A model generated the notes under the pieces. The model did no database searches, was not told where the DNA came from, and was given only the letters and a program-made list of their open reading frames with translations. DNA of 64,000 nt from Euglena gracilis. Lineage: Eukaryota. Shown piece by piece: positions 1 through 42,844 of the stretch (its first letter is position 1; the number at the start of each line of letters is the position of its first letter). The translations under genes and the position numbers were made by a program. The DNA lies in contig CP154954.1 of the NCBI GenBank assembly GCA_039621445.1, forward strand, positions 6,273,425-6,337,424. The letters are read 5' to 3'.

Positions 1-7
1 TCAAGCA

Positions 8-898
8 TTAGCTTTTTAATATCTCTAGAGATTTACGCATATCTGCGTCCCATTTGATTTTTGTATTTTCGGGTGCGCGATTTTTGACCTGCCTCATTAG
101 AGGTACCGCGATTTTCGCGAAATCTTTCATGTAAATCGCGTAGTATTGGGCTAATCCCAAAAATCCTTTCAAATGGGTGATGGTCTTGATGACCTCAGGT
201 GTCCATTTCTTAATGGCCTCTAGTTTGCTAGGCGCCGCTCGGCGTTGGCCATTATTAAGAATGTGACCACAAAACTTTATCGTTTCGCGAAATAAGTGCA
301 TTTTAGCACCTTTGACAAAAAGTCTATGCTTGAGAAATGCGGCTAATACCGCGCGAACATCACGATAGTGAATATCGAGAATATTCTCGTGTGTCGCTGA
401 AGGAGGGGGGGTACCAACCAAAACATCATCAATGTATACCAGCGCAAACGGAAAATCCCGTAAGACCCATTGGATCATGCGCTGAAACATTGCTGGTCCA
501 TTCTTAACACCCATTGGTAAAACTGTCCATTGGTAAACACCTCTGGATGTTACAAAAGCCATATAGGCTTGCGAATCGGGATCCAGATGCTTTTGGTGGA
601 AACCATCCTCCAGGTTGAAAATTGACCACAAGCGGTTATCCACTTGTTTTGTGATGAGGTCCTCTATTAGAGGTAGCGGGAATGGGTCATCCTTAGTTTG
701 CGAATTTAGGTACCGATAATCCAGTACCAGCCTCCACTTTTTCTGACCTGATGGGTCTGGGGGCTTAGGAACCACAAAAGCTTGGGAGGTCCATTCACTC
801 TTGGAAGGGATGATCCACTTCCGCTCTATGAGCTTTTCAATCATTTCATTGAGAGCTATCTCTCTTTCTCCTGAACAACGGAAAAATTTCCGATGCAT
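8..898 (-). pseudogene. pol: Gypsy-A reverse transcriptase (copy 1)
   Basis: Ty3/Gypsy RT motifs: PSKSEWTSQAFVVPK, WRLVLDYRYLN, FPLPLIEDL, LPMGVKNGPAMFQ, LVYIDD, FLGLAQYY. A 1-nt indel near position 21 versus copy 2. Confidence 0.95.
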
Positions 899-1224
899 TG
901 GCTTTGCGCCTTCCTTAAGCTCAATCTTACAAACACCGAAAGGTCCTTGAATAGCGGGATCTATATCGCAAGCGTAAACGGGATTTTCCAGAACACCAGA
1001 AAATTCGCGACTGATGCGCGTACAAAATTCTGCTCAACTGGGGTGATGTCCTGCACTTTCAATGACAGCGGAAACCTGTTTATGGGTCATATCAACTATA
1101 GGGGGGGGGGGGCAGAACGGTGATGCCTATCGGCCATATGGTCAAAAGCCGTATCGGCTCCCACATGGTCGGTATGATCCAACACACTAACATTCAGGGG
1201 TGGAGATTGAGACACATTGAAAGA

Positions 1225-1626
1225 ATCAAAGAAACAAACACGGAAAATGATTTCTTGGAAATGTGGTAATACCACTCCACGGAAATCCTCGAATAGAGGA
1301 ACATCGTTTGGTAGGTCCAACCAATAAAATGTGACATAAGTCAAATTCTGAAACCATTCCGCTTCGGGATTCACAGGAACAAGTAATGCGCCTCGCGCTT
1401 GATCCTGGAAAATCTTATTTACAACAAGCGGGATAAGTTTTAGGGGTGGATGCATCCATAGGATAGTGTCTCCCCAAAAATTATCAAAAGCGTTAGAATG
1501 TTGCGACCAATGTCGCGGTAGTCGCGAATGCGCGTTGGAAGAGAATGCATCAATTTCTAAGGTCAAATCAAAGGAATCTGCCATATCGGCGATTTTTGAA
1601 AACCAATGTTTCAAGATTCGATATTG
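1225..1626 (-). pseudogene. Dam-like N6-adenine DNA methyltransferase domain in Gypsy-A pol (copy 1)
   Basis: Within ORF 1096..1758: QYRIL...IDAFSSNAHSRLPRHWS...NAFDNFWGDTILWMHPPL...GALLVP...EWF...VPLF. Motif IV reads HPPL (WMHPPL at 1441-1458) instead of NPP(Y/F/W). Confidence 0.75.
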
Positions 1627-2602
1627 ACCAAACTGAAAAGCATTCCAGGTATCCTTGGTGTACTTGGAGATCTGCTCAACATCCTGAAGGGGGGGAACAC
1701 GCTGTAACACAGAACAACAGAATTGTGAATCATCCACACACATGTCCATAGGACTCAATCCAGGGGGGGGGGTTGGGCATATACCCAGTCATCGGTGATG
1801 CGCGATAGCGCGGAATGCGCGATATGCGCGGGATTCGGACTATGTGCGGCAAGCACGATATTCGCGGGGGTGTTGGATAGCGCCATAGGCGCATGGGGAG
1901 CGCTATTCGCAAATCCTAAAAGGGAGGCTATGCCTCTGCACTGTAGTGCTTGATTCACATTCGCGAATTGCGAAAAACTTCCAATTGTAAGTGTGGGATG
2001 TGAACAACTACTAAGTGTATGGTTGGGTGTATCACCCATTGTACCAAGGCTACGTACGTTTTGGTTATCTATTAAATCCGTACCGGTTGTACCATTACCA
2101 AGTACATAAGTACTATTACCAGGTGTAGGTGGAGAAAAATTCCCGGTTGCGGAATCTAATCGGATTAGTTTGGAAGATTCAACTAGACATCAACAATCAA
2201 AATCATGGTAAGCGGAGATTCTCCGACAGTGAGCGCATTGGTAGGAGGGTTGGTGCATGTGGTGCGCGTTTGTGTGGGTGTCACTGCATAAGTTGGTGTC
2301 GGTTGGGGTAGCTGCTGGGAGGTGTACAGGGGTGTCCGAAATCGACACACCTGGTGGAAAACGAAAAAGTTGGGCAGCTGGGCGGCTACTCGACACCGTA
2401 ATTACTTCAGGCCTTTGGGCTTTCGCCTGGGAACCCAGCGAAACGAGCGGGGTTAAGCTACTGGCTTTCCGTACCGCATGGGAAACGAGCGGTAAAAGTG
2501 CTGTGTGTAGGGGGGCAACTTTCTGTTTACCCCTAGGGTAGGAAACGGTGTTTTCGGATGTGGAAAACGTTATGGAAATGCGGGGGGACGTCCTGGGTGA
2601 CG

Positions 2603-3034
2603 TCACGGGGAACAAGTTTGGGGGTTCGGCGTGTGTGCAGTGGTAGTGCGCAAACCGTGCGAAGGACAATCCACCACCATTCGGTGTTGCCGTAGGAATG
2701 GAAGACCCAATATGACATCTGACCCGGCGATATTCGCCTCGAATGCCCAAGTACCCAGAAAATTTTGTAATTGTGGGGGGTGTGTGTCGTGCTTCGGGAT
2801 AATGGGGAGGACTATGTCCAAAATGCATCCCAAGTCACCACCGCACATGGGGCTGTTGTCTGCAGTCATAATTTTGATGGGATTCTTGGCATGAACCAAG
2901 AGGGGGGTGGGTATAATTCCTTTGCGGAAAAGAAGGGGGATTCGACACCCTGTTTCGACTAAAATCTTGGCTTGTGCACAAAAATTTCGAGTTTTAATTT
3001 TCGCTTGTACCAAAAGTTCCAGGGGGGTACGCAA
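2603..3034 (-). pseudogene. Gypsy-A aspartic protease-like domain (copy 1)
   Basis: AKILVETGC at the D(T/S)G position, plus FEANIAGSDVILGLPFL. Aligns by eye with the Gypsy-B protease (ARILIDTGA...YEANIKVDAILSYPWL). Confidence 0.75.
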
Positions 3035-3098
3035 AGCGAAGGGTCGGGTGTAAAATCGTTATCGCGCCAACTATTCCATAACTCTTTGCTTACTTTGC

Positions 3099-4264
3099 TC
3101 AACATTCCAAGCAAAAATTTCGCGCGGGGAGTGGGGGACCGAAAACTTTCTGGGTACCGACTAAAAAGACCGATGGGCAGGGGTACCGACCATCATGCGC
3201 ATAGCGGGTATGCAACTTAGCCAATGAGGCTTCAATATTACCAACATCCTGTTGTAACTGTTTGTGCAAATCGGACACGGTGGCCTGAAGTCCGCTAATA
3301 TCCGGTGTTGGTGCACGGGTTGCCGCATTGCGGTTCTGCAAATCCGCGATTGCGGTCCGGATTTCCATTGTGCCGTTTTGCCACTGTTGTTGCAAATTGT
3401 CAATCCTACTCGCGACATTCGCGATTTGGGGTTGAAAACTCGCAATTTCAGCGGGAATTTCGCCTAATGGCGAGATTTCTGCTCCAATCGAGAAAGTCTT
3501 TCCTCCAAATGTTGCACATACGTGCGGGGGGCAAAACTTTGATTGGCTTGGGTAGAAAAGCGGGCAAAATTCGCGGAATCACCGCTCAATTAGAAAATGC
3601 GCTGTTGCGCTTCCTGAAATGCGGTTGAAAGTGTGGAGAACTGCTCCAATGTAATAAATTGTCCCAAATCGGGATTTTTTGATGGGGGTTCATGCAACTT
3701 TTGCTGCAATTGTGGAAAAATTGCCGTAATTGGCTCCAATTTGTGGGATAAAGCTTGCAATCTATGTTGCATGTTGGAGAAAATCGCATCATTGCGGGAT
3801 TGTGTTTCACACATGGCTTCACTCACTTTTTGGAAATGTTGTGGCAAATGTGCCTGCAAATGTGTGTCCAAACTTTGACGCAAAGTTGCTAGGTCCACAT
3901 TGGTGGATTGAAAATTTGTTTGGCAATATTCACCAACATCACGCACATAACTCCAAAGGTAATCGAGCTTGTGTTCTACAACCTTTTGGATGTTTTCATC
4001 AAAATCCAAAACCTTGTTAAGTGTCATAGCGCAATCCGCTACACAAGTGTGGACATGGGAGATTTGCCGCGTTAGCGGGTGGTCCACTGGAAGATTTGCG
4101 ACTATGCGCTGAATCACCGTAATGGGATGAGAAGAAATATTTTCCAACTCTTCCACATCACTGCTCACAGACTCTGTAGGACTTGTATAAGCAGGAACTG
4201 TCAAACGCATCTCCGGGTGCCATGGCAATGCCGGAAAAGAACCCGTATCCGGTGGTGCGGGCAA
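3099..4264 (-). pseudogene. Gypsy-A gag-position ORF fragments, coiled-coil-like (copy 1)
   Basis: ORFs 3590..4264 and 3099..3395 lie upstream of PR on the same strand and are rich in L/Q/E. No diagnostic gag motif seen. Confidence 0.45.
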
Positions 4265-5648
4265 TTGTCCAATCGGACTTGTGGGGTGAAGCGTAGGGGG
4301 GGGGCTGAAAGAAACATGGTGTTTCTAACGCACCTTCAACAAAAAGTTGCCGTGGCGTATCCGTCTCAGAGTCAAATGTGCCTATCGGCACCAGTGCGAG
4401 ATCTCGCCGGCGGGAATGGGTGTTAGCCGATTGGCTTTCCAACAAAAGGGGTTGTGCCTGTTGGGCATGGGGTTTGCTCTATAGAGCTTGACACCGATAG
4501 GTGTGGGGGTTCCCATCGGGCGGGGGGAGGATTACTCGACACAGACACCGATAGGTGTGACACACGCGGGGAAGGAGGATGACCTGCCAAATGAGTCAAT
4601 GCTTGTGTACCCCTATGGGGTTGAGGATGCTCATTAGAGCTAGTCAATGATGCCGCAGGTTCAAGTCCTCGAAGTGAACCAATCAATGCAGCGTAGTCAA
4701 TGGGAGTTGTGCTCTGCATTTTTGAAGCAAAAACACAAAAAACAAGTGTAAATTGCGGTGTAAAATGCAGAAACAAGTACAAAAAAAAGGGAAAGTATTA
4801 AAGTAAGCAGAGACCCGAACTCTGAGGTTTGAAGCAGCGTATACTGCGAACCGTCATAGGACGTGTCCGTGCGTACAGCTTTGGCCGGAAACGGCTTGTA
4901 GTGCCTGTAATCGCCTCTAGGCGAGGCACCACTCGACCGTTTGCCATCAAAAGGATCGAAAACCTAACCTGCTACAAAGTGTATGTCCAACCTTTCCTCG
5001 CTTTCGCCCTTTGGTGCGCAAAAGGTAAAAGTTGGAGTAACAGAAAAAAATAAAATAAAAATATAAAAGTTGAAAAGCCCTTTTCCCCAATTAAGAGGCA
5101 GAGCACAAGGCAGGTGAGAAGCCCTATGGGCTACGACAAAGAAAAGTGCCAAGTGACTTGGCTGTCCTTTCAGGACTTCAAATGAAAACAAATCAAACTT
5201 GAAAATCAAGTCTTGAATGAAATACCAGAATGGAATAAAATAGAAAATACCACCAAGAACCAGAATAAGGATTGAGTATTCCTAATTCAGGCCGTTGGCA
5301 TCTGTAGGAATACCACCCAGCATAGTACTGTGTATGGGGCTCAGAGCTATATCTGGCCGTAGGCTTATACCTACATACACAGTACCATGGCCTTACGGCT
5401 GCCTGGTACACAATTGCGCCAAGGGATCCTTCCGGCTTGTTCCGTACGCATCACGCCTCTTCCTACTGCGCAAGGGGTACCTCTGGGACGTTCGCCTACC
5501 GCCACCAGAACAGTGCCAGCATTGTGGCCAAAATCACTGGCCTTGGGACAGCCACACCCTCATCCGCCTGATCGGCCCGCTCCCACGTGCCCAATCAGGC
5601 TCACCTGCATTTAGGATTACAAGTGGGACAAGTGCAAAAACCCCCTGC

Positions 5649-5702
5649 CAGGGAAGAGGAGATCTGCTCTCGTGCGGAGACGTCCCCACGCACCCTGAAC
5701 CG
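5649..5702 (+). other. Degenerate 2A-like motif (CRE-B)
   Basis: Translates QGRGDLLSCGDVPTHPEP; positional counterpart of CRE-A 13401-13454. Confidence 0.6.
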
Positions 5703-5806
5703 CCGCAAAACCTAACAACAGACCACACACACACCCCGGACGTCGGGCTGGAAAGGCCCGTCCGTCGTAGTCCGCCCAAGGGCGCCGCCGCACAAGTGGG
5801 GCAAAC

Positions 5807-5860
5807 CGCGGACGGGGTAGCCTCCCCACCTGTGGGGACGTGGAGGAGAACCCCGGACCA
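5807..5860 (+). other. Intact 2A/StopGo motif (CRE-B)
   Basis: Translates RGRGSLPTCGDVEENPGP with a full D(V/I)ExNPGP core; 16/18 identical to T2A EGRGSLLTCGDVEENPGP. Confidence 0.93.
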
Positions 5861-6894
5861 GCCAGGCGTCCGGCACACGCGTCACCCCGCGGTGCACCGG
5901 CTGCGGCAGGTGCCCGGTACCACGACCACCTGTTGTTGGGTCTCGCTCACCCGGAACGCGACGCCGCGGTGGTCATCGACCGCGCGGGGCAGGAGTCCAA
6001 TCTCAGAGGACGGACCGCGCACATCCTTGTCGTGGGCACCCCCCAATGCGACATCACCCATGTCCTACATCAAAAAATCCCGACCCTCATACACCTACCC
6101 TCGGCCTGCGAACAACCTGTCTTTGACACCATGGCAGACACCATCAACACCTACGCCCACGCACAGGTTGAGGGTAGCCTGGACCAAATTGATCTCTGAT
6201 GAGGGCATGCTGGAGGATGACATTGAAGGTGGCGGTCTTGTTGGTGAGCCAAAGGTTGTGAGATGTTCAGCTGTGTAGTGGTTCAACGGTGGTGGCTCAT
6301 GAATGGACCAGGGTCTCAGTACAGGGCCAGGGTTGGTCTTGGGTTGTAGGCCTTCCACATCAATGGCATCAACCTTGGTAGGCTTTGGTTGAGCTGGGGG
6401 TCTTGGCCTGGCAGCCTGGGATGCATTGGTATGTGACCCCTGATCTCTGACCCTGCATCTGGGTCCACCCACTTGGGACCCAATGGAACTGATAGCTGGG
6501 CAGGTCATGGTCCCACAACTGGAGAAGGTTTTGGGCAGGGAGTCCCCAGCTGGAGTGAGGGGTGTCGATGCTGCCAGAGCCTGAGTGGGAGATGTCGATG
6601 TAACCACAGCCAAGGTGGGAGATGTCGATAGAGCCACAGCACCAGAAGGTGATGGTTCAGGTTGTGGTGTAGATGGGGTCGGGGAAACTGAGGAGTTGAA
6701 GGCTGGGTGCAAACTCAACATGGTGGATGGGGATGGTACTGGTCCCAGTGCCAGAAAGAAGGAGCCAAACATCAGTGTGACTCTGAGGCATGAATGGATG
6801 GTTGCTGACTTAAGGGGGCCAATGAGAAAATTAGGCCAATAATTGCTGCAATGTTGACTGCAAAAAGGCTTTGGCAGGTCCAAAAGGCTGACAG

Positions 6895-7085
6895 GCTTTT
6901 TCTGGGGGGGCTTTTGCAGGCCCAATACATGAGGAGGGAGAGCCGATTCCAGTGGGGGGTTTTGCAAACCCAATATTCCAGACTTTGAGACGGCTTCCAG
7001 AGGGGGCTTTTGCAGGCCCAATATTGAAGGTTGGGGCTTTTTCAAGCCCAAATGTGACGTGGAGAGCTTTTGCAAGCTCAAATAT
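6895..7085. repeat. Degenerate tandem repeat, about 40-55 bp spacing (ggcttttgcaggcccaatat core)
   Basis: Four to five copies, visible as LGLQKPP repeats in ORF 6095..7225. Confidence 0.6.
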
Positions 7086-7619
7086 GCACCCAGGTTGTCA
7101 ATAGTAGTTGACTGTCCGCGGCGACCACGTCGGCACGGTAGTACGGCGTCGTCTTCGTTCTCGTCGTCATGCAGCAGGCTGCCCAGTAGTCTGCAGTAGT
7201 CTGCGACGTGACGCAGGGTCTTCACAGTCCACCTCCATGTCGAGTCTCCGCTTGGTTCCAGTCTGCGTGGTCAGGGCGGCGACGATGCTCTTGGACCCCG
7301 TCTGGGGCTTTCCGGCCATGTTATGCGGAAGGCGAAAAAAAATCGACACTCAGAAATTGAACTCAGTCCACCGACCAGTGGCACAGCCTACTGGATTTGA
7401 GTGTTCAGGGGTGTCGGAGGCTATGTACAGATGGAGGAACCCCATGGATAGTCCGAGGTGTCAACTGTCGCGGGGCTCAGCGGGAGGAAAATGGGCAAGG
7501 CCCATCTTCAATATAAAGCGCAGGGGGAGGGCAGGGCGGTGCTACAAACCGTGTGGTATGGTCGTCGGCGGGTGTGCAAGAGGTGGGTTGCGGGGCGTGG
7601 GTGGGGGGGCGGTTGGTCG

Positions 7620-7696
7620 TTGTCTCTCTGTGTGTGTGTGTTGTTGTGTGTGTGCTGTGTTGCCCTTCTTCTTCTTCTTCTTCTTCTTTTTCTTTC
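7620..7696. repeat. (TG)n and (CTT)n microsatellites in the CRE-B 3' UTR
   Basis: tgtgtgtgtg... and cttcttctt... directly after the RLE stop; copy 2 has one extra CTT. Confidence 0.85.
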
Positions 7697-8392
7697 TTAA
7701 CGGAGTAAGTGCTTGGGTTGTAGGAGGTGGAATACCTCTCGTAGCAGGGCGATGGCCACGTTTTGGTAGATTTCCGCCTCCTTGATTTCGCGCTCAGCGC
7801 CCTGCTGCCAAAACGAGGCACGTTTGGCCACTCTGCTCAGTGTCCTGGCCGTTTCCGGTCCCATGCCGCCCCATGTCCCGAGGGCGAAAGGCGTGAAGCC
7901 CCACCATGCTTGCTGACATGGGATGTTGTATTTCTGCTTTTTGGCGTCCTCCCTCCTCTTTAGGAAGGATCTCCAGCGTTCGCGGGTTGCGGTGAGTTCT
8001 GTAGCCTGCCATCCATGGCAGACGGTGACGTCCAGCGCTGTCGGCTTCCCCTCAGACCAGCAGTCCAGAAGGGGGTCCGCCGGGCGGAGATGGCTGTCTC
8101 TGGCTGTCGGCAATGAAACTTCCTTCTGCACCCGCTGACCGCTGTTGGACAAGGTTTGAAATAGGGCGTCCTGTAAAGCGTTGTGGCGTGTTGCGAAGTT
8201 GTTCCTGCGGCAGAAGAGGAGGTGGTCGCCCTCCTTGTCCATGGGTTGGCCGAATCCTGTGCACGGCTGGCTGACGTCATTCAACACCAGGAGGCCCAAC
8301 CACCATTTCAGTCCCAGGGTGTATTCTTCGCTGGAGAAGGTGGTGTGGGAGTTGTTCGAGGGGGTAGCTGCCATCCAACCGTGTCCAAACCC
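7697..8392 (-). pseudogene. CRE-B C-terminal Zn knuckle plus restriction-like endonuclease
   Basis: LKWWLG, CTGF...DHLLFC (decayed CCHC), RHN, RPAD...ALDVTV...RREDAK, FTPFALGTWGGMG. Confidence 0.9.
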
Positions 8393-8895
8393 CGTGTGTT
8401 CAATTTCCTAAGGTTTGCATACAGTGGACCTGTTCCCCTATTTAGTGGCGGCCGCTCCATCCTTTCACAGAGGGGGACACAACAAGGCTGCCCTCTGGGC
8501 CCCATCGGGTTCGCCCTGGCGCTGCAGCCCCTGCTGGAGCGGATTACCAGGGATGGCCAGCTGCTGTGGAACAGCTGGTACCTGGACGACGGCCTCCTGG
8601 TCGGGACCCCGGACAGGATTGAACACTGCCTACGATTCCTGCTGCAAGAGTCCCACCGCGTAGGTCTCGGCCTTAACCTGCAAGCGTCATGTGGGGCCCG
8701 GAAGCAAGGAGTACACCCAGCTGTGACAGAATGCAAGTTGTCCCTTGGACACTAGGGGAGGGTATCACCGTCCTTGGTATCCCAGTTGACCTCCCTGCAT
8801 CCTCGGACACTACCAAGACGGCGTGGGAAGACGCCGCCGCCAAAATCGAGAAGGCCGCATCTACCATAACTTCCCTGACCGACGCCCAGGTAGCT
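8390..8895 (+). pseudogene. CRE-B RT core fragment, inverted relative to its flanks
   Basis: GTQQGCPLGP, WYLDDG, GLGLNL, GITVLGIPV, with a frameshift near 8685. Confidence 0.9.
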
Positions 8896-9452
8896 GCCCG
8901 GTCTACGCAAACAGTCTTGGAGGTGGCGGGGCCGCAGACCCGACGGACCTGGTGCGGATCCCCGCAGGAAGCGGCGGATGGCCTCCTTCAGTCTGTCCTC
9001 CCATTCCGGGGTGTGGTTCTCTGGAAATGGCCTAACGTGTCGCGGGAGGCGGTTGGTGTCGACGTTTATGCCGGCAGGATGCAACTTCTCCAGGGCAGCC
9101 CAGACCTCCGGGTCCTCTGGTTGGTGCGCACCCTCGGAGAGCAGTATCTGGACCGCCTTCGCGGACGCCCCTTTAGCAGTGAGGGTGCGTACCCGTCTCG
9201 TTACTGCCTCACTGAGGGCGGTCGGCTGTGTTCTGGAGCGCTTTTCCGCCCTGGTTTCCACGATGGAGTGTCGTGTCTGCGTGACCTTCAGTGCCTCCGA
9301 CAGAAGGGTGGTGTAATCCCCCTCGCGGAAAAGTTTGGCGCGCCTCAGCAGGATGGACTGCAGCTCTGCTGCCGAGGGCGGTGAAGTGGTTGACGCAGGT
9401 CGAAGGACGAGCTTTGGGAAAGGGTGTGCCCCGAACAATGCCGCGTCCGAAC
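8893..9452 (-). pseudogene. CRE-B RT N-terminal region
   Basis: FPKLVLR...LFREGDY...AKAVQILLSEG...LEKLHP...SAPGPSGLRPRHLQD, colinear with CRE-A 14050-14585. Confidence 0.9.
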
Positions 9453-10274
9453 GTAATCATCCTCAACCTCAACCCCAGCTCCCTCAACCCCCACACCAAC
9501 CCCATCATCCAGTTCAACCACGCTACCAGCCAAGACCCATCAACCCAGGGGACTGGTCCCAGAAGGACCTGGGGATGGACATCCCGCAGCTGCTGCAATG
9601 AGGAAGCAGACCCAACCAGGGAAATGCTCATGGTGGCCAAGGGGCCAATGACAGGAGAGCCAGTTCAGGAGGGCCCTCTTTGTCAAGTCCACTGCTGGCA
9701 TGGTCTCTGGTCACATGACACCACATTTGTTCCCCTCTACCATATTTGCTGATTCACATGTCCCCTACCCCCCAGCATAATGTCTGGCTACTGCCTTTCA
9801 TTTCTTTGGGATTGTTTTCAGAACACTGGGGTTGGATGATGACTTTCATACTCGTTGGCTACAACAAACTTTTATGAGGCATTCCCCCCATCCTGCTTGG
9901 CTTTTGCTCCAACAAACACTTCTGAGGCACACACCTTCAAACCACTCAACCCAATCAATCAGTGGCCTTCTGGGGACTGACACCAGAGCCTCCCCATCTG
10001 AGACCCACACATTTTGGCCCTGACCCTCAGCCATCAACAGCCCACCCAGTACTGCATCCTGGCCCAGTACATCCTGGCCCAGCAGTTTATCTATCATTGT
10101 GGGCCTTGTGGGCCTTTGGAGCAGTTCCTCAACTGCCCATAGATCCAGGACTTCCTCCACCGGTGTGCCTTTATGGCCCTGCTCAACCTGTTCAGCTGAT
10201 CAGACAACCCAGAGCCCCCCCCCCCCCGGCATCAATATTCGAAGAAATATCTCCCTGCAACGAACATTTCAGCC

Positions 10275-10605
10275 CCAGCCTTTTGTTTCATCCGTGCCCA
10301 AAATTGTCATCAGCTTAGCACCCCCAGACATCGGGAAATTCCAGCCAGTTTTTTCATCCCTGGCCAACATTGTGATCAGTTTGGCAACCCCAGAGCTTTG
10401 AGAAAACCAGCCTGTTGTTCCATCCCTGACCAACTTCGTGATCATTTTTTCAACCCCAGGGCTCTGAAAAAACGAGCCTGCTGCTCCATCCCTGGCAAAC
10501 ATTATGATCAGTTTGGCAACCCCAGAGCTTTGGAAACACCAGCCTGTTGTTCCGTTCATGCCTGACATTGTGACCAATTTTCCAACCCCAGAGCTCTGGA
10601 AGCAT
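10275..10605. repeat. 66-bp minisatellite, 5 copies
   Basis: ccagcc/cgagcc starts at 10275, 10341, 10407, 10473 and 10539. Confidence 0.9.
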
Positions 10606-10884
10606 GGAATCACTTAAATGCACTTTTTGACCGTTTGTGGCCCCCCTCAGCAGGTTTCTCCATGAAGCAACTTCAGTCCCATGCCGGTTGGACAAAAGGC
10701 CCCCCCCCCTCTGGGTGCAAGTGACCCCTGCACATTGCACATGCAGCTTATCTATCACCCTGGCAAGTGGAGGCACACACCTAACAACTCCTACAACTCG
10801 ATTTGTTTCACATGACAGCCCTTTGCCTGCATCCTTTCTGCGAAGCCATCCCCTTTCACACGGGCCAACATTCATTCACGAACC

Positions 10885-11070
10885 CGCCCCCCCCCCATGG
10901 TACGTTCCAAACTCCAAAAACCAAAGTGATTACTCAAAACCTCCTGAGTTGCCCAGTTTGCTCTTCCAATGAACCCAAACAGGAACCCTCCCCCCCCCCA
11001 GTGGTATGTTCCAAACTCCAAAAACCAAAGTGATCACTCAAAACCCCCTGAGTTGCCCAGTTTGCACTTG
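10885..11070. repeat. Tandem duplication, about 103 bp spacing
   Basis: tggta(c/t)gttccaaactccaaaaaccaaagtgat...gagttgcccagtttgc occurs twice. Confidence 0.85.
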
Positions 11071-11680
11071 CAATTATCCGAAACAGGAAACCGTCCAGCA
11101 AGTTTTGCACCCATGTTTAGCAATTACCGCGCCTCTTACTCCAAAGGATTTGAAATTCACCAAAAGCTGCCTTTCTCACACCAACGAAAACTCCAGGTCT
11201 TTACCCCAGCCGATCTCACACCAGCACCCACCATCTCGTAACCTCCGAATCGCAAAGAACAACAAAATTCCCCAAACCTGCCGATCTGAGACCCACGTTA
11301 ACTCAAGGCTAAAACCCCAGCCGATCTCGCACCAACACCCTCCATTCCACCAATTTCTCAAAATGACCAAAAGCCGCCGACCACAGACCCCCGGCAACTC
11401 AGTGCTACAATCTCTGCCTGTGTCGCATTATTCCCCAGCTTCTCCGCCAAACTCAGCAACCTCAACGTGCCGCCCAACACCAAACTGCCAGCGGGCACCG
11501 AGGATGAGCAGGCTCCAGTCCCCAGCTTCTCCGCCCAAAAGAGCAACGCCAACGCGCTGCCCAATACAAAACTGCCGGCTGGTGCCCACGATGCCCACGA
11601 TGAGCAAACACCAGGCCCCCAAAAATCTGTAGGCAGGGCACTTCCCGGTGTTGCACTTCTCCAAAGTCGCTCTGGAAAAC

Positions 11681-11722
11681 CTGTTACTACAAGCAGGAGA
11701 TGTGGAGCAAAACCCAGGGCCT
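11681..11722 (+). other. Intact 2A/StopGo motif 1 (CRE-A)
   Basis: LLLQAGDVEQNPGP. Confidence 0.93.
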
Positions 11723-11877
11723 GCAAATGGGCCGTCTTCCCAAATGCCCACCGAGACAGTCTGGGACACCACAGAGCGGTTGGGGCAAATAGGGCAAATC
11801 TGGTGTTTCTGCTTACATACCACACGAGCTTCCGGTCCGGCAAGCAACCACAAAAACTGTCCCAGCATAGTGCTCGA

Positions 11878-12122
11878 TGTGTGTTGTGTGGCTCCAGCAT
11901 TCGCCACCAAGGTTTCGAATCTCTGCGCTTGCACCGCTGCCAACAGCATGCCGCTCGTGCCTCCACTCAATCCCCTTTTCACGTCCTAGACACTTCACGC
12001 TGGTCCTCGGAAGAGCTGGGCCAATGGAAAATGGAACCTGGTGGAAGGCAGACTGCGACGTGTGCCGGCGGCACTGGGTAACTTGTAACCTTGCAATACT
12101 ACTCAGGCATGAATCACTGTGC
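11878..12122 (+). pseudogene. Two putative Zn-finger motifs after 2A motif 1
   Basis: CVLC...LRLHRC and CDVC...LLRHESLC, in different frames. Confidence 0.45.
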
Positions 12123-12356
12123 CAACCACGCCAGTGGGACCCCGACTACGACGCCGATCCAAGCCCCCTACCCTCCCCACCATCATCACAGACTCCCCCA
12201 CCCGACAACCACAACTATAGCACTGGAACACAACAACAGCAACAGCATCAGCAAATGCAAACACAGCCACAGGCACACCCTCATCAACATTCACAATACC
12301 ACAGCTGTTCTAGCCAGCCCCAAAGGCTCTGCCACCACACTCCCCAAATACCGTCA

Positions 12357-12410
12357 GGCAGAGGCGCAGCCATTTTGACTCACGGGGACGTGCAAAAGAA
12401 ACCAGTACCG
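12357..12410 (+). other. Decayed 2A-like motif 2 (CRE-A)
   Basis: GRGAAILTHGDVQKKPVP; three single-base changes (CAA/GAA, AAA/AAC, GTA/GGA) from GDVEKNPGP. Confidence 0.7.
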
Positions 12411-12518
12411 GAAGAACACAGAACAACAAACACCTCGCCCAAACACACCCTCCTCGGACCACAGTCTCGACCAAGGCCATATCCCTATCGCAACCTCACC
12501 CCACCAGCGAGGCTCTCG

Positions 12519-12910
12519 GACTACATGCTCGACCCCCCATGGGTCAACTGGGTTCTGCAATCACTGCAGGTGCCCCCAGAACATCACCACACAGTGGATG
12601 CATTCGCGAGCTGCCACAACGCGCAACTTCGTGAGTAATGGGACGAAAACATAGATTGCTTCACCAAGGACTGGTGCACAGACAAGGCCTTGTGGATGAA
12701 CCCACCATTCAATCCAAATCCCAGCCGTTACTCAGCGTCTGCTCACCGCCGGGGGACACGCAGTGTTGCTGGCGCCAGCTTGGTCCCAATCCCTGCGTTC
12801 TCTACAACAACTTTGTACGCGCACGGCAATCCTCCCACCAGTTCCCCTATTTCGCGTGAGGGGGACAGTACTGATGCCTGCACCACCCTGGAGAACACAT
12901 GCTTTCTCTG
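12519..12910 (+). pseudogene. Dam-like N6-adenine DNA methyltransferase domain in CRE-A (copy 1)
   Basis: DYML...TVDAFASCHNAQLRE*WDENIDCFTKDWCTDKALWMNPPF (NPPF at 12699-12710), then after a frameshift VLLAPAWS...PVPLFRVRGTVLMPAPPW. Confidence 0.85.
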
Positions 12911-13227
12911 TCTCCCGCCCAAATCCCTCTCCCAGAGACCCCCTAGCACCCCTACGACTCTCGCACTCTCCACCTGCTTCCTCTGCCATCAGCTCAGATA
13001 CCCCTCCGCCAGACCCGGGCACTCCTCCACGACCCTCTCACCCACCGCCAGTACTTCACTACAGAAATGACTTTCCATTATGCCGATCAACCGATTTGCC
13101 CCCTTTGACATCCTGGGCCTTCGCACAAAATAACGCAAAATGGATCTCCTTCGTACACTTCGCGGGCCGCGTTTTCGTCCTCGAAAGATGATTCCTTTGG
13201 GACATCAGATTCGGCCCCCCCTGGCCG

Positions 13228-13266
13228 TGCAGTTCATGTGGAGGGAAGCACTGGTTCTGGGATTGC
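13228..13266 (+). other. CCHC Zn-knuckle-like motif (C-x2-C-x3-H-x4-C)
   Basis: CSSCGGKHWFWDC; CRE-B counterpart CQHCGQNHWPWDS. Confidence 0.7.
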
Positions 13267-13400
13267 CACCCTCAGCAGCGTGCCACAGCATCCTTGCATC
13301 CTCTGCGCCACACAGCACGTCCATCCCCACCATTCGTGTCCTGCCAGTGCAAGGTGCCTGCGACCATTCAGTCCTACCCAACAGAACCTGCACAGACTGA

Positions 13401-13454
13401 CAGGGCCGCGGCTCACTCATGACCTGTGAAGACATCGAAGAAAAACCAGGACCA
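13401..13454 (+). other. Decayed 2A-like motif 3 (CRE-A)
   Basis: QGRGSLMTCEDIEEKPGP. Confidence 0.8.
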
Positions 13455-13620
13455 CTCCGATCCCCACCTTCCTTGCGTGGCCCCCTCCATCACTGCGGAC
13501 CCCCGTGCACACCCCTACGGCCACTACACCTCAGCCCACAACTGAACGAACTTCGAGCCTGCCAAAACGAGAAATAGACCCTACTTCAGAAAAAGTCCCC
13601 GCGGACAGCGCCCGAAGGGC

Positions 13621-13674
13621 ACTGGGAGAGGTTCACTCCTCACCTGCGGAGACGTGGAAGAAATCCCAGGACCC
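13621..13674 (+). other. Near-intact 2A motif 4 (CRE-A), same frame as RT
   Basis: TGRGSLLTCGDVEEIPGP, 16/18 identical to T2A; ATC is one base from AAC. Frame matches ORF 14056, with two intervening TGA stops. Confidence 0.9.
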
Positions 13675-14055
13675 GCAGCACCCACGACGGCGCAAAACAA
13701 GTCATGCAAACGCAAGGAACGATCCAGCTCCGCCTCCACTCGATGACCAGCAGACAACGCAGACACCACTGACCGCCTGAACGACCTAGCCCACCCATGG
13801 GAAGGCAGAGACGCAGCAACCGTAGCAGACTCGGCGGGCAAAGAAAGCAACCTGAGAAACAACGCCAGATGCGGGATAACCATCAGTGCGAGACCTTGCC
13901 CAATTGAGGACATCCTACAGCTCCGCGTGAACACCATCCTGCATGTCCCCGCAACTCTCCAAACCACGATATGAGACATCCTTGGAGCCGCCCTCGACGC
14001 ATACACAAGCAACCCAACCGACGACGGGCTCTTTGCAATCCTGGCTTTCCCCAGA

Positions 14056-16909
14056 TTGGTGCTCCGCACAGTAAATGCGAAAGGTACACACGCCCCCGAT
14101 GAACTCGCCTCGGCAATTGGAAGACGAAACGGCCTGTTCCGATCCGGCGAGTACGGCACGTTACTGACAGAGCTCCACTCAGCACAGAAATCCGCAATTT
14201 CAAACGCCACAGCGCTAATTAAAACCAGAGCGGAAAAACGGGCAAGAACAGAACCCTCCAGCCTACCAGACCGAACCCTGCAGAGAGTCAAAACGCTCAC
14301 AGGGGAAGGAGGCCCAGCCAAAGCACTCCAACTATTACTCTCCGAAGGTTCCCACAAACCACAGGACCCACAGGTGTGGAACAAACTGGAAGCCCTTCAC
14401 CCAAACGGTAAGCCGGTGGACCTGAACAACCTCCCCGCCAAGATCACACCGTTCCAGGATGGACAATCAATCTCGTGGGAACCAATCCTGCATGAGGCAA
14501 TCCTGAAATTCCCTCGGACTTCATCCCCAGGACCTTCTGGGCTCCGCCCTGTTCACCTGCAAGACGCAATCAAGCGCCCAGGCAGAGGAGCACAGCTAAT
14601 TACAGCACTCGCCAAAATGACCAACACCTGGGTGAATGGGGACCTCCCTGCTGCACACTCCCCGTTCTGGTGCGGCGCCAACCTGACTCCGCTCAGAAAA
14701 AAGGATGACGGTGTCAGACCGGTGGCAGTGGGTGAGACCATACGGAGGTTGATTGGCAAAGCCCTCTTGGTAACAGGCACGGCAAAAGACCAGGTCAGCA
14801 AGCTCCAAACCACACAAGTCGGCGTTGGGGTCACAAATGCAGCAGAATCAGTGGCAGTAGGCTTTCAGCACCTGGTGCACAAACTGGACCCAGCCGGCAA
14901 TTGGGCAAGTTTGCAACTGAACTTCTCCAACGCCTTCAATTGCATAGACAGGTCACACCTGCTGCTCGAGGCAACAACCAGAACGCCCTGCCTCTTCAAC
15001 TACCTCAATTTCGCGTACAAGAACCCTGCCGCCCTATTCTGCGCTGGCAAAATCCTCTGGTCCCGCTGCGGAACTCACCAGGGCTGCCCACTTGACCCAG
15101 TCGGCTTCTGCGTTGGTCTGCAACCTCTGGCAGAGACCATCAGAAACAAAGCGGAGCTACTCTGGAGTTCGTGGTATCTGAATGATGGTATCATGGTAGG
15201 CCAACCCGACAAACTGCAGAAAGTCATCTCCTTCCTCCAGGGCGAAGCCACACGCCGCGGACTCCAACTGAACCTCCGAAAGTGTGTGGTATGGGGGCCA
15301 GCTGGCAACCTAATCACCTCCGCACCAGATATGACCGTCATACCATGGCAAGAACATTCAGGGATCACGTATTGGGAGTTCCAGTGGATTTATTCGGGGG
15401 GGGGGAGCGGGCACTCAACTGTAAGAGGCCGCCAGTCGTGTGGGGATCAGGGCCGCAGGGTTGGTACCACTACCCCCCCCCCTTATTTGAGCACACCTCC
15501 GGAGTGCCAAACGGTAGACTGGGGGGGGGGGTAGTGGGTAGTCGGCCGACTAGTCGGCCGACCAATTGGGTAGTCGGCCGACTAATTGGTCGGCCGACTA
15601 GTCGGCGGACCAATTCCCACAAGCCACCAAAAGACAGCTGAAGCGTGGGTTGCGGCCACACGGAAAATTGAACACGCAGCAGACATTGTAACCCAAATGA
15701 CAGATGCCAAAATTTCTCATCACCTGCTACGCTCCTGTCTTGACGGTTGCAAAGTGAACCACCTGCTCCGCGCCTCCAACAGCTACCTCTGTAAAGAAGC
15801 AGTCACCCGATCTTCGGAAACCATTCTTCAAGCTTTTGAGAACGTCGTTGGAGTGCCTCTGAACACCACACAGAGACTGCAAGAAGCACTGCCACTCACC
15901 CTCACACAACCAAGCAGCGGAACGTACAGCAGCCCTTTGTGCCTTTTACACAGAAGGATATCAGAGAATCGGTTTGCCTCAGTATGCAACAGACCCAGTG
16001 GCAGATCTCATTGAACCACCCCTCAAAAACTTGTGTGCTGCCCTGCCCAACCACTCGACAGCCCCGAGACTGCTGGGGAATCTGGCCCACACCAAGACCT
16101 CCGGAAAAATGAACAATCCCAAAAATGGTGGTCCACAGAAATAGGAAAAACCACAATGGACAACCTCATCAACCAATGCAAACCACGAGACCAGGCCTGC
16201 CTTTTGGAACAATCCTCAGGAATTGGACATGGTTGTATGGTCTCTCCACCGTCCCCCGCCCTGCACACTGTCTTCTCAAGTGACGAGTACTGTCTTGGCC
16301 TCAAATGGTGGCTCGGAATGCCCATCATAGACGACGACACGCAGAAATGCCAAGGCTGCCCCACTGGACAGGGAAGGGGACCACCTCATCTGTTGCCCAC
16401 GAAACAACTTCACTGTCAGACACACGGCTGTTCAGGATGCAATTTTCACCCTCCTATCCTCCACAGGCCAAGGTGTCCAGAAGGAAGTCACAATCCCCAA
16501 TGCCCCCGATGCCAATCTGCGCCCCGCTGATCTCTTACTGGCATGCTTCCAGGATTGCAAGCCCACAGCCCTCGGCGTCACGATCTGTCATGCATGGCAG
16601 ATCCCAGAACAAAGTACCTCACGGGAACGATGGAGGTCTTTTCTTCGACGCAAAGAATCTGCCAAGCACACTAAATATTACGTCACCTGCCAAAATGCAG
16701 GTTGGTCTTTCACCACCTTGGCAATGGGCACATGGGGAGGCCTCGGCCCAGAGGGCGCCCGCTTGCTCGGTCGCATCTTCAAACGAGCCACGGCGACGCA
16801 AGAAGGAGAAATAGGGGAACTCAAGCAGGCCGAATGCTATCAGGCCGTCGCTGTCGCACTCACCCGCCAAATCTGGCAACTCCTCCGAGTGAAACACACC
16901 GTCCGCTAA
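14056..16909 (+). pseudogene. CRE-A RT, thumb and RLE; inactivated
   Basis: SSPGPSGLRPVHL, RPVAVGETIRRLIGK, LNFSNAFN, HQGCPLDP, WYLNDG (Asn at two catalytic Asp positions); insertion near 15393-15615; LKWWLG, LRPADL, MGTWGGLG; several frameshifts. Confidence 0.93.
15393..15615. other. About 220-bp insertion in CRE-A RT with G/C runs and a palindromic array
   Basis: Interrupts LGVPVDL...PTSHQKT, which is contiguous in CRE-B (LGIPVDLPASSDTTKT). Contains repeated gtcggccgac palindromes at 15538-15615. Confidence 0.75.
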
Positions 16910-17835
16910 ACATGCACACCGCTAGCCACAAAATGCTCCACCAGCAGCGTCACACAGAGCACAAACAGCCAAATGCGTACTACTTCGGGAAGCCGAGAGA
17001 CAAACAGGGAACCTCCTCGCCATCAAAAGACACAAACACGCCCCGCCAGGCGAACACCCGACACACCCCTCGCGCCACGTAACATATAGGAAGTGGGTCT
17101 TGCCCACGGGCCGAACAGCAGGGGCACCATACACAAACACACCCCGCCATTCAAACACCCCCCCTCCCCCGCCAAGGTATATATATGGATCGTTGGTCTT
17201 GCCCACGGTCTCCTAACCAGCTGACCGCCAACAATGCCTATACTTGCAGTGTACACTACCATCAGTATAACCTACCCGCGATATAACCTACCCGCGGCAC
17301 AGGAAGTCACAAGAGGGTTCCTCTTGTGGCGCGGGCCAAAAGAAACGATACCCTGGGCCCAGGGCACGGTTCGGGTGAAGCTGTGCTACCCACCGTGAAT
17401 TCTCAACCGTCCTTTGTAGCTTTTCTGCTTGTTTTTTTTCGACATGTCACATGGCTGACATGTCCCCTGGTGGGGTTCTAGTTACAAGCTGGGATTATAA
17501 AGTACAAGTTTTCAAGTTTCAACTTTCTGTACAACATTGTAAGTCCAAGGACAATACTTGTTTGCAAGAGCATAGGTACGCTGGTGGACAGTGCTTCTAG
17601 CCTCAGTGCTGGGGCTTCTTTGGCCGTATGCTGCTGGTTACTGCAGAATTGACTTTAAGTCGGTCTGTTTTACTTTTTGTGAACTGTTTTGTTTCTTGCC
17701 TTTTCTTTTTGTTTCTGTTTACAAAATAGCCCCAGAACAAAGGAAACCGAGGAACTTCGGTCTGTTTTTGCAAAGCTCCCATTCAGATTGTGCCAGTGTG
17801 CTAAATGTGAAAGGGATTTTGAAGATTTTGAAGAT

Positions 17836-39690: not shown

Positions 39691-39769
39691 TTTGGGTAAC
39701 TTGGAACGGGGTTTGAAATAAAGGCACGGTAGTGCTTTGCCATTAGGCGGGGAAAGGTATGGCTTGAAA

Positions 39770-40800
39770 TCATCCATGTGAACATCCTCGAACCCGTTTG
39801 GGCAGTGCCACCCTGTAGCGGCCACTTTTGCCAACACGTTCGAGAATTTCACAGGGCCCGATCCAGAGGGGGTCTATTTTGGAAGCTTGCATACGGATTC
39901 GGTTATTCCGAACCCATACGCGATCACCAGCACTATAGCCAGGTGATTTGAATTCTTGCAAAAATTTATTTCTCTTTTGAGAATGGATATCAGTAATGCG
40001 TTTTTGAACAGTAGTTCTGAGAGACCCTACTTCAGAGAACCATGTCTCACAGGTTACGTAACTTCGAGCTGGTCTCTCTGATGATATATCACCAATCGCC
40101 GCCGGGTCTCGCCCAAAAACGATTTTATATGGGGATTGCGGAAAAACTAAACCCGGTAGGGTGTTTATATAAAAGAGGGACCATGGCAAAACCTGGACCC
40201 AGGCCTGGCGCGAGTCAGCCAGTGAGAGGCGGAGCATATTTACAACAGCCTTCACTGCTGCCTCGGCGCGGCCATTGCCCTTCGGGCGATATATAATGGA
40301 AAAATGTTGTTCGATTCCCAGTAAACCACATAGGGTTGTGAAGAATCGGGAAGAGATCAAATGATCTTGATCACTGACAATCTCATTCGGCAAGCCCATT
40401 AGGCAGACACACTTCTCCATAAATATCTGCGCTAAAATTTGCGCGGTCAACCCTGCCTTTTGGCATGGAATGGCTACTATGTAACCACTCAAGCGACAGA
40501 CAACTACAAAAACATAATCGTAAATTTTGCCGTCTGATCCTTAGCAAGGTTCTAATTCGAGAAAATCCATGCAGAGGGACGTAAAAATGTCAGGGGGTAC
40601 GGGGAAAAAATCAAGCGCACCAGGGGGGGTACCTCTGCGCGGTTTCACGGCTTGACAAATTTGCACCATTGCGAAATTTGCAAGCAGCGCGAATGCAAAT
40701 CTATTTCTTTCAGGGTTGTACAATACCTGCGACCCACCAAAGAAAGATGTTTGGGGGCCCCAGGGTGAACTTGGTTGTGTTAACACAAAAGTACTTCATC
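39770..40800 (-). pseudogene. pol: Gypsy-A integrase
   Basis: [45 protein letters not shown]; stops and frameshifts. Confidence 0.92.
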
Positions 40801-41099
40801 AACCAAGTCACGGGGTATACAATATTTATATCCCGCATCATCGCGGTAAACCAACCGTAAAGGGGAGAGAGTATAATTATGTACAACTTCGCCATTGCGC
40901 AGTCTGTGCACTATCGTGCTATATACAGGGTCATGGGAATAATCCCATTCGCGAAAGAAGAGGGGGGAAGGAGATTCAGATCGCGTAATGCGACGGGGGC
41001 CAGGTGTGCGGCCTCGTCGCCTTCTCCCCCGTATAGGAGAGACTGGCAACGAACGAAAAATCGATGAAACGGGAAAAGAGTCCAACATATCGTCGGCTG

Positions 41100-42519: not shown

Positions 42520-42844
42520 TGGCTTTGCGCCTTCCTTAAGCTCAATCTTACAAACACCGAAAGGTCCTTGAATAGCGGGATCTATATCGCAAGCGTAAAC
42601 GGGATTTTCCAGAACACCAGAAAATTCGCGACTGATGCGCGTACAAAATTCTGCTCAACTGGGGTGATGTCCTGCACTTTCAATGACAGCGGAAACCTGT
42701 TTATGGGTCATATCAACTATAGGGGGGGGGGGCAGAACGGTGATGCCTATCGGCCATATGGTCAAAAGCCGTATCGGCTCCCACATGGTCGGTATGATCC
42801 AACACACTAACATTCAGGGGTGGAGATTGAGACACATTGAAAGA

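Follow-up and report, generated by a model that had tools for sequence, protein, structure and literature searches.

Can a retrotransposon without long terminal repeats (LTRs) be organized like a viral polyprotein and deliver a methyltransferase as a protein of its own? This question is raised by a decayed element in a 64,000-nt stretch of the Euglena gracilis genome (assembly GCA_039621445.1, contig CP154954.1, positions 6,273,425 to 6,337,424 of the forward strand), which is called the window in the following and to which all coordinates refer. A first-pass annotation, made from the letters of the window, had proposed that a non-LTR element with a reverse transcriptase (RT) and a restriction-like endonuclease (RLE) was originally one open reading frame (ORF), cut co-translationally at four 2A sites into about five products, one of them a free adenine methyltransferase with a zinc knuckle. 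After comparison with related proteins, we consider it very probable that the window holds a decayed long interspersed nuclear element (LINE) of the RLE type, whose intact relatives are polyproteins with several 2A sites and with cassettes for a Dam-like methylase and zinc-finger proteins.

The element and its intact relatives

ORFs were called from stop to stop with the standard code, and motifs were located by a six-frame scan of the window. All features listed in the first-pass annotation were found at their positions on the + strand (Table 1). The four 2A motifs are all present, but only the first is canonical in the window copy, while motifs 2-4 depart from NPGP at one or two residues. 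These motifs are not due to chance, because the strict pattern D[VI]ExNPGP occurs four times in the six-frame translation of the window and never in 100 block shuffles, and a loose 2A pattern occurs ten times against a shuffle mean of 0.08. Also the reading frames agree with the earlier description: motif 2 shares its frame with the first methyltransferase half, and motif 4 shares that of the RT, from which it is separated by two stops. Motifs 3 and 4 share one frame only in the second copy of the element, owing to a 1-nt indel at 13588, and the spacer between them, given before as about 55 codons, measures 166 nt.

The modules between these sites were recognized by their likeness to relatives. 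A profile built from 17 RT-RLE proteins (A1) matches the window with E 1.3e-165 (13798-15369), 2.9e-46 (15598-16362) and 6.9e-57 (15896-16906), and the Pfam family RVT_1 with E 1.3e-6. A family hidden Markov model (HMM) of the Dam module matches with 8e-22 at 12510-12713 in one frame and with 5e-22 at 12718-12960 in the next, the frameshift lying near 12714-12717, and the core has one in-frame stop (12636-12638). Motif 2 stands where relatives have a canonical NPGP immediately 5′ of the Dam module. The C-terminal extension of the methyltransferase, which in the window has one in-frame stop, has its counterpart in FGDRxFV...LWDxRGP...CxxCxxxHWPWxC of P0001, P0003 and P0017 (P numbers denote the gathered relatives). 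Immediately after 2A-1, a zinc-finger module, here called Z, begins with P-A-N-G-P-S-S and is split over three frames. The Z HMM gave no match on this broken copy, and the assignment therefore rests on motifs and on tblastn of the P0011 and P0025 Z modules onto 11684-11890 (E 1.5e-6 and 8e-5).

With the RT ORF of the window as query, 53 longer proteins were matched; 20 of these have NPGP sites, and for seven a precomputed Pfam Dam family is recorded. Altogether, 244 proteins were gathered with RT or Dam queries, which makes them a biased sample. The RT-RLE profile matches 102 and the Dam profile 162 of them, and 20 carry both in one uninterrupted ORF. NPGP is found in all of these 20 ORFs, which come from separate contigs, and in 38 RT-RLE proteins overall. 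The order of modules is leader, 2A, zinc finger, 2A, Dam, 2A (often doubled) and RT-RLE, or alternatively with Dam ahead of the zinc finger. Where Dam and Z occur together (14 of 244 proteins), Dam precedes Z in 11 and follows it in three; the window has the latter order. P0001 is a single ORF of 2111 aa, composed of a 650-aa N-terminus, Z (176 aa), Dam plus knuckle (289 aa) and RT-RLE (996 aa); P0005 has 208 aa followed by Z, Dam and RT-RLE; and P0009, P0011, P0012, P0020 and P0025 consist of N-terminus, Dam, Z, in part a short piece, and RT-RLE. Four NPGP sites each in P0009 and P0025 predict five products. The window is colinear with P0001, P0003, P0005, P0006, P0009, P0011, P0025 and P0032 (Dam, 2A, RT, linker, RLE), the colinearity reaching from the Dam domain as far as the final residue of the endonuclease. 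Thus, the proposal of an ancestral single ORF giving about five products, including a methyltransferase with knuckle, is supported by intact relatives and a colinear window.

Such a constellation could also arise if a 5′-truncated RLE LINE came to lie beside a fragment of a DIRS or LTR element bearing Dam, so that the methyltransferase and the upstream 2A sites would be foreign. Indeed, the window is crowded with retroelements, including two Dam-bearing Ty3-like elements on the - strand and scrambled LINE fragments at 5427-9450, and nesting is invoked for Dam domains with LINE-like RTs in Euglena gracilis in the available text of a recent preprint (Fernandez-Moreno et al., 10.64898/2026.05.21.726589). 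We nevertheless regard a nested chimera as highly improbable. It is contradicted by the 20 uninterrupted ORFs that join Dam and RT-RLE on separate contigs, all with 2A, and by the colinearity of the window with relatives of this kind. Moreover, the Dam domain of the window shows 33-41% identity to each of the 15 Dam modules of the LINE family, compared to 26-29% for those of the two LTR elements in the window, and contig depth over the Dam region (~100-123 in the one DNA run that served for all depth and contig comparisons) equals that of its flanks. The methylase is accordingly part of the LINE, as the first-pass annotation had assumed.

2A sites, the Dam-like module and exchangeable cassettes

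The 2A consensus was derived from 143 sites with full upstream context, of which 113 conform to D[VI]ExNPGP; by column, the consensus reads (T)GRG..LL(S/T)CGDVExNPGP. Two to five sites were counted in 44 of the 241 proteins tallied, where they delimit swappable modules. Junctions read ...GDVExNPG/P, and modules begin exactly at the Pro after NPG. When the Dam-module profile was run against the PDB, the only matches were ...GEGRGSLLTCGDVEENPG tails at the C-terminus of engineered constructs, which we take to be the T2A peptide of Thosea asigna virus; the family consensus is nearly that of these tails. The distance from the last 2A to the YxDD box is 462-598 aa in 19 relatives and 504 codons in the window (to YLND). 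A doubled 2A stands immediately 5′ of the RT in the window and in P0006, P0009, P0025 and P0027, in which the pieces between two sites are only 47, 20, 39 and 39 aa long.

The link between 2A and Dam is also seen from the Dam side. NPG/P lies within 25 aa of the start of the match in 33 of the 105 Dam matches with at least 25 aa upstream, many at 0-5 aa. Searched through 1.84 billion cluster representatives, the Dam profile matched 5923 proteins at E<=0.001, of which 53 reached E<=1e-30. Among the best 150 matches, 45 of the 144 newly gained proteins contain NPGP, and in 29 of the 93 with enough upstream sequence no more than 40 residues separate it from the Dam start, usually only 4-5.

On this basis, intact members are expected to produce one mRNA with one ORF of about 1300-2100 codons, in which the ribosome would skip the Gly-Pro bond at each T2A-like peptide (GRGxLLxCGDVExNPG/P); that the sites skip in the host is inferred from their sequence. 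Product 1 would be a leader or N-terminal piece and product 2 the small CCHC zinc-finger protein Z, in some relatives replaced or joined by an SLBP-type RNA-binding module. As product 3 the Dam-like N6-adenine methyltransferase is predicted, in the window with a C-terminal knuckle, and product 4 would often be a short peptide between tandem 2A sites. Product 5, the RT-RLE enzyme of ~1000-1100 aa, would, like R2, use target-primed reverse transcription to insert the element. Drop-off at the 2A sites may yield more accessory protein than RT-RLE, in analogy to the ORF1p:ORF2p ratio, and the methylase may mark the new copy, its RNA or the RNA:DNA intermediate with N6-methyladenine.

The architecture could be real and the 2A-like peptides mainly attenuate translation, through stalling or lowered abundance, or skip inefficiently, leaving much of the product fused or scarce. 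According to the accessible text of a high-throughput 2026 preprint, most retrotransposon 2A-like peptides made the protein less abundant, namely in 59% of the ORF2p cases and in 70% of those of ORF1p (PMC13405545), and down-regulation of downstream products was proposed by Odon et al. 2013 and Heras et al. 2006 (PMC3708506, as far as its available part goes). In addition, many members have a first 2A that resembles T2A less closely, e.g. LLRTGVEANPGP and DGDVQPNPGP. Against this, most sites fit the strongest known skipping consensus with T2A tails as their PDB matches, the module starts coincide with the Pro following NPG, and a tandem 2A before the RT is best understood if complete separation matters. 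Attenuation as the main function is therefore judged unlikely.

The methylase family was checked with Pfam. Dam (PF05869) was matched in the window piece with E 0.0095 and 16.1 bits, below the curated cut-off of 28.1 bits, which P0001 (29.0 bits) and P0009 (28.3 bits) exceed. The NPP[FYW] pocket, WMNPPF in the window, has N72, P73 and P74 invariant in alignment A2, whose members are ~41% identical. In the AlphaFold model of the P0001 module, the core (residues 11-150) has a predicted local distance difference test (pLDDT) score of 82-96, and the knuckle region is poorly predicted. The model fold matches PCIF1 (Z score 9.5), T4 Dam (Z score 8.0, root-mean-square deviation 2.9 over 106 residues) and E. 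coli Dam (Z score 7.8); KsgA, Erm and DIMT1 are also among the best fold matches, and the top Foldseek matches are adenine methylases. By sequence, no solved methylase was matched with the Dam-module profile in the PDB, and P0008 alone gave no PDB match at E<=0.01. The modelled fold and the type of chemistry point to the adenine-N6 class, within which the fold does not fix the substrate.

The module may methylate RNA, for instance the transcript of the element itself or the adenosine next to its cap, or an RNA:DNA hybrid, or act as a non-catalytic nucleic-acid binder in place of ORF1p. The top structural match, which is also in the Foldseek top 5, is the RNA cap m6Am methyltransferase PCIF1, and KsgA, Erm and DIMT1 score on par with DNA Dam enzymes. 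In the available text on Dam domains of transposable elements, these gave no 6mA in E. coli, and a hybrid substrate is suggested by the authors (10.64898/2026.05.21.726589); RNA as substrate was suggested for SymbioLINE-Dnmt in the accessible part of De Mendoza et al. 2018 (PMC5890265). On the other hand, the sequence family is Dam PF05869, T4 and E. coli Dam score only 1.5-1.7 Z units under the top match, and the catalytic NPP[FYW] is invariant although members are only ~40% identical, so that some form of catalysis is more plausible than the non-catalytic version. We see these alternatives together as a minority possibility that deserves attention, and keep a Dam-like N6-adenine methyltransferase as the preferred assignment.

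Alignment A3 of the Z modules shares the pattern PxxGPSS...SGPSG...CxxC...HxC. The module has no Pfam family, and its model (mean pLDDT 75.3) gave no convincing fold match (best VIA Z score 3.6, Foldseek E about 1), with only weak rows resembling dsRBD, MBD and zinc ribbons. Z is taken to be a zinc-finger protein that probably binds nucleic acid. An RNA-binding domain of the type found in the stem-loop-binding protein of histone mRNA (SLBP; PF15247, E 2e-13 to 3e-20) is present in P0024 (515-583), P0032 (290-359) and P0069 (40-101). It is flanked by 2A on both sides in P0024 and belongs to the N-terminal piece before the first 2A in P0032 and P0069, and may be an RNA binder comparable to ORF1p. 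The RT cores of P0003 and P0004 hardly differ (end branches about 0.05); P0003 has Dam plus knuckle ahead of the last 2A, whereas P0004 has a repeat N-terminus of 738 aa and shares only the final 65 residues. The accessory region thus turns over fast.

Class, phylogeny and relation to known systems

The consensus of alignment A1 is CPxC..GDHAxxC..RHN..E..RPAD..AxDxTVxH..ExxK. Compared with R2 proteins in the PDB, the profile matched 9nl3_A with E 1.7e-32 in separate RT and RLE stretches. The alignment pairs the CCHC, RHN, E, PD, DxTV and K residues, with E 7.5e-4 for the RLE stretch, and the match to L1 ORF2p is far weaker (~1e-10). In all ten relatives scanned with Pfam (E<=0.01), a domain of the apurinic/apyrimidinic endonuclease (APE) is absent, and only RVT_1, Dam or SLBP_RNA_bind were found. 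Based on the R2-like RT and RLE profile match and the lack of APE in these relatives, the element is an RLE-type LINE.

A DIRS1-type identity was rejected, because the RT is LINE/R2-like and neither RNase H nor integrase was found on the element ORFs or in ten relatives. DIRS elements with Dam have reportedly been a subject of work by Goodwin and Poulter.

The RT-core tree (132 rows, 333 columns) is a single FastTree run computed without bootstraps and without named reference elements. A clade of 45 rows with a Shimodaira-Hasegawa-like support of 96 contains 28 of the 31 2A-bearing rows together with every one of the 13 that have Dam, and a further 13 of its rows are too short to score 2A. The 2A label needs 14 changes on the tree, compared to 27.9 in shuffles, none of 500 being as low. 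P0073 (65% identity) is the partner of the window on the tree, and both belong to a clade of seven rows, every one with 2A. As contrast set, 80 metagenome loci with 27-40% identity in the best segment represent more distant RLE LINEs. None of them has a Dam module, the 2A pattern was found by six-frame scan only in L012, and the longest ORFs contain NPGP in L012, L051 and L069. The multi-2A layout hence marks a subclade and not RLE LINEs at large. Our overall view, held with more confidence than doubt but less firmly than the reading of the window itself, is that this clade of RLE LINEs is widespread in environmental eukaryote assemblies and consists of multi-2A polyproteins with exchangeable Dam, CCHC and SLBP cassettes in two orders, a DAM-LINE class that has not been listed.

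Several observations speak against this view or against the reading of the locus. The window copy is not translatable as one ORF and has one canonical motif of four, for which reason the single-ORF claim rests on the relatives, and these are at most 65% identical to the window in the RT core. Gene calls of relatives may run into untranslated 5′ sequence, and the N-terminus of P0004 (738 aa) is a tandem low-complexity repeat. The RT tree, as a single unbootstrapped run, has several long branches. Within the 45-row clade, P0015, P0018, P0059 and P0063 have no NPGP despite at least 40 aa upstream, and Dam is not universal, being absent from P0004, P0024, P0058 and P0064 with at least 400 aa upstream. 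Many eukaryotic 2A-like peptides lower protein abundance instead of skipping (2026 preprint, PMC13405545, accessible text), and Dam domains from transposable elements gave no 6mA when expressed in E. coli, a part of the prokaryotic enzyme being absent (bioRxiv 10.64898/2026.05.21.726589, available text). Finally, three RNA raw-read runs gave only 13, 22 and 30 reads on the stretch at 80% likeness, mostly partial fits, and many of these fall on the low-complexity insertion.

An assignment to the CRE clade, which is specific for spliced-leader (SL) RNA genes as in CRE1, SLACS and CZAR, would also be conceivable. CRE elements are euglenozoan. The RLE-type architecture and weak relatives in the euglenozoan Diplonema papillatum, one of the named distant matches besides Pyropia vietnamensis and Porphyra purpurea, agree with this assignment. 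However, no Rfam family reached the threshold anywhere in the window, so that no SL RNA, small nuclear RNA or ribosomal RNA gene was recognized beside the insertion. Also, the Diplonema proteins fall into a different, long-branched group of the RT tree, which includes no named CRE reference. A dinoflagellate SL motif does not occur in the window, a single locus, and this motif may not be that of the host. Membership in CRE is thus rather improbable.

Among known systems, R2 and other RLE LINEs share with the family the single ORF with RT followed by the CCHC knuckle and the PD-(D/E)xK endonuclease, and the lack of APE. One difference to R2-type elements is that neither ribosomal DNA nor another RNA-gene target was seen by Rfam in the window. 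RNA-virus polyproteins, as that of Thosea asigna virus with T2A, resemble the family in having one ORF and several 2A sites near the T2A consensus; unlike these viruses, the element is a chromosomal retrotransposon that has neither capsid nor protease, its predicted products being a zinc-finger protein, a methylase and RT-RLE. Picornaviruses with multiple 2As are also said to have been described.

RLE clades are presented as single-ORF, single-protein elements in the accessible text of Odon et al. 2013 (PMC3708506), which reports 2A for APE-type LINEs and describes the R2 type as one multifunctional protein, whereas in the present family as many as four 2A sites, along with two or three accessory modules, lie ahead of the RT. 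In APE LINEs with 2A (L1Tc and Ingi of trypanosomes; Rex1, L2, CR1 and Crack of sea urchin and others; Dualen of Haematococcus), an in-frame D(V/I)ExNPGP stands near the N-terminus of the RT protein, the elements having one ORF instead of two (PMC3708506, PMC13405545, available parts). There, 2A lies ahead of the APE endonuclease with no accessory enzyme between sites; the family described here has RLE and 2-5 sites. The available part of the 2026 preprint adds Dualen and further ORF2p cases with 2A, 'most' of them with APE (PMC13405545), and a 2A peptide class is mentioned for dinoflagellates and the TSAR group in the accessible text of Rao et al. 2025, where the context is not given (PMC12338488).

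The short eukaryotic Dam-type domain with its NPP[FYW] pocket is shared with DAM-DIRS and DAM-LTR elements. As far as the available text of the preprint goes, Dam of transposable elements is assigned to DIRS, Ty3-like LTR and a hepadnavirus-like element with no non-LTR class named, and some Dam elements of Euglena branch with LINE/L1-like RTs and are possibly nested (Fernandez-Moreno et al., 10.64898/2026.05.21.726589). The clade described here may explain this puzzle. In DAM-DIRS and DAM-LTR, Dam lies within Pol according to the same text, as opposed to the separate 2A-bounded product predicted here. SymbioLINE-Dnmt of Symbiodiniaceae (de Mendoza et al. 2018, PMC5890265, available part) is likewise a LINE with a DNA methyltransferase as accessory upstream of the RT. 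There, an APE-type element encodes a C5-cytosine methylase in an ORF1 of its own, in contrast to the N6-adenine type in the single ORF of an RLE LINE, predicted to be freed by 2A. In the literature found by full-text search, the LINEs with 2A were all of the APE type or Dualen, and Dam was confined to DIRS, LTR and hepadnavirus-like elements. A multi-2A RLE LINE with Dam was not found described in this search, although unread supplementary tables may list such proteins.

If the architecture holds, it would add a further, unlisted Dam-bearing class to the retrotransposons, extend the capture of prokaryote-type adenine methylases from DIRS and LTR to non-LTR elements, and provide the first known case of a LINE that sets an epigenetic enzyme free as a protein of its own; the substrate of this enzyme (DNA, RNA:DNA hybrid or RNA) would be directly testable. 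Making several proteins from one ORF by skipping would be another route for a LINE to gain ORF1-like helpers. This concerns RLE LINEs, known from textbooks as retrotransposons with a single protein and currently serving as a platform for gene-insertion tools, and the clade offers natural multi-2A cassettes with a T2A-like consensus. Since its 2A is nearly identical to the T2A of an insect virus, RNA viruses and LINEs would then seem to have exchanged 2A cassettes.

Condition and surroundings of the window copy

Table 1. Element, second copy and neighbouring retroelements in the window with position, strand and basis of the assignment.
Feature	Position	Strand	Basis
Element, decayed RLE-type non-LTR retrotransposon	11681-16909	+	ORFs, motif scan
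Open leader frame, closing with 2A-1	11633-11722	+	ORFs, motif scan
2A-1 LLLQAGDVEQNPGP, sole canonical 2A of the window copy	11681-11722	+	motif scan
Z module, Cys-x2-Cys-x15-His-x-Cys ARCVLCGSSIRHQGFESLRLHRC, then Q-rich tail	11720-12356	+	ORFs, motifs, tblastn
2A-2 GRGAAILTHGDVQKKPVP, degenerate	12357-12410	+	motif scan
Dam-like N6-adenine methyltransferase core (VDAFAS...WMNPPF)	12408-12960	+	Pfam, family HMM
Methyltransferase C-terminal extension, FAGRVFV...LWDIRFGP... and knuckle CSSCGGKHWFWDC	13159-13266	+	motif likeness to relatives
2A-3 QGRGSLMTCEDIEEKPGP, degenerate	13401-13454	+	motif scan
Spacer between tandem 2A-3 and 2A-4, 166 nt (~55 codons)	13455-13620	+	motif scan
2A-4 TGRGSLLTCGDVEEIPGP, immediately 5′ of the RT-RLE protein	13621-13674	+	motif scan
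RT-RLE module, stop codon at 16907-16909	13672-16909	+	RVT_1, family profile A1
RT domain; YxDD box is YLND at 15175	~14695-15294	+	RVT_1, E 1.3e-6
Private insertion or replacement in RT-linker region	15369-15621	+	other copies, depth, repeat array
RLE domain: CCHC knuckle (CQGC...GDHLICC), RHT, E, RPAD, ALGVTICH	16348-16906	+	family profile
Same insertion, second copy of segmental duplication	53305-58537	+	window self-comparison
Dam-bearing Ty3-like LTR-type retroelements	25312-21256 and 43243-39770	-	domain order
Partial duplicate of Dam-bearing Ty3-like element	1788-8	-	
Scrambled related RLE LINE fragments	5427-9450, duplicate 47051-51075	both	motif scan

The window copy is dead and immobile. 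Its reading path needs at least five frame changes, one of them near 16360 in RT-RLE, and meets in-frame stops at 12636, 13189, 13744, 13972, 15532, 15583 and 16012. Catalytic residues are altered in both enzymes: YLND replaces YxDD in the RT, and in the RLE, ALGVTICH stands at the AxDxTVxH of the family with glycine for the DxTV aspartate. At 11630-11632, just ahead of the leader frame, both other contigs covering the stop have a different reading, and most other contigs have a different letter at the stops 11630 and 13744.

A segmental duplication of at least 22.4 kb with a period of ~41.62 kb has doubled the first third of the window and with it the element; 1-22374 corresponds to 41621-64000 with 99.72% identity. 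Over 11000-17500, the two copies differ by eight substitutions and five indels. The second copy reported earlier thus exists, but it is one insertion duplicated together with its surroundings and adds no independent support.

Contig pieces at 80-100% likeness were collected and their depth was summed. The element is covered by 2499 such pieces, and depth rises from 56 at the 5′ end to ~1100 near the RLE, a gradient which fits 5′-truncated LINE copies. The other copies skip 253 nt at 15369-15621, and protein alignments stop at 15369 and restart near 15598. This private insertion contains an array of the palindromic 12-mer TAGTCGGCCGAC at 15539-15610, over which summed depth reaches 35,280 compared to a few hundred nearby; this short repeat is therefore extremely abundant in the DNA run.

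The untranslated regions (UTRs) of the element probably lie upstream of 11681 (5′ UTR) and beyond 17100 (3′ UTR). No 5′ or 3′ sequence common to the element and the other LINE fragments of the window was found, and ORFs at 10200-11632 have no Pfam family. Just 5′ of the ORF, tandem repeats occupy 10275-11593 (66 bp x5, 104 bp x2, and pairs of ~112 bp and 87 bp), and one frame is open over 10973-11632. The repeats could be 5′ UTR monomers of the element or target sequence.

In both Ty3-like elements, Dam is located at the N-terminal end of Pol. One has the order Dam, aspartyl protease, RT, RNase H, integrase, and the other Dam, RT, RNase H, integrase with a Tf2 SH3 domain. The LINE-family Dam HMM matches their Dam domains with 9e-27 and 3e-11. 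Both correspond to the 'DAM-LTR' class of the 2026 preprint, and the host thus has Dam in LTR and LINE elements. The scrambled LINE fragments at 5427-9450 comprise a pre-RT region with the canonical 2A RGRGSLPTCGDVEENPGP (~5807-5860), RT pieces on + and -, and RLE on -, and are probably nested or rearranged insertions. The observed/expected ratio of CpG is 0.66 in the window and 0.67 in the element, and 0.92-0.95 in the Dam-bearing LTR element at 39700-43600 and in 1-5000.

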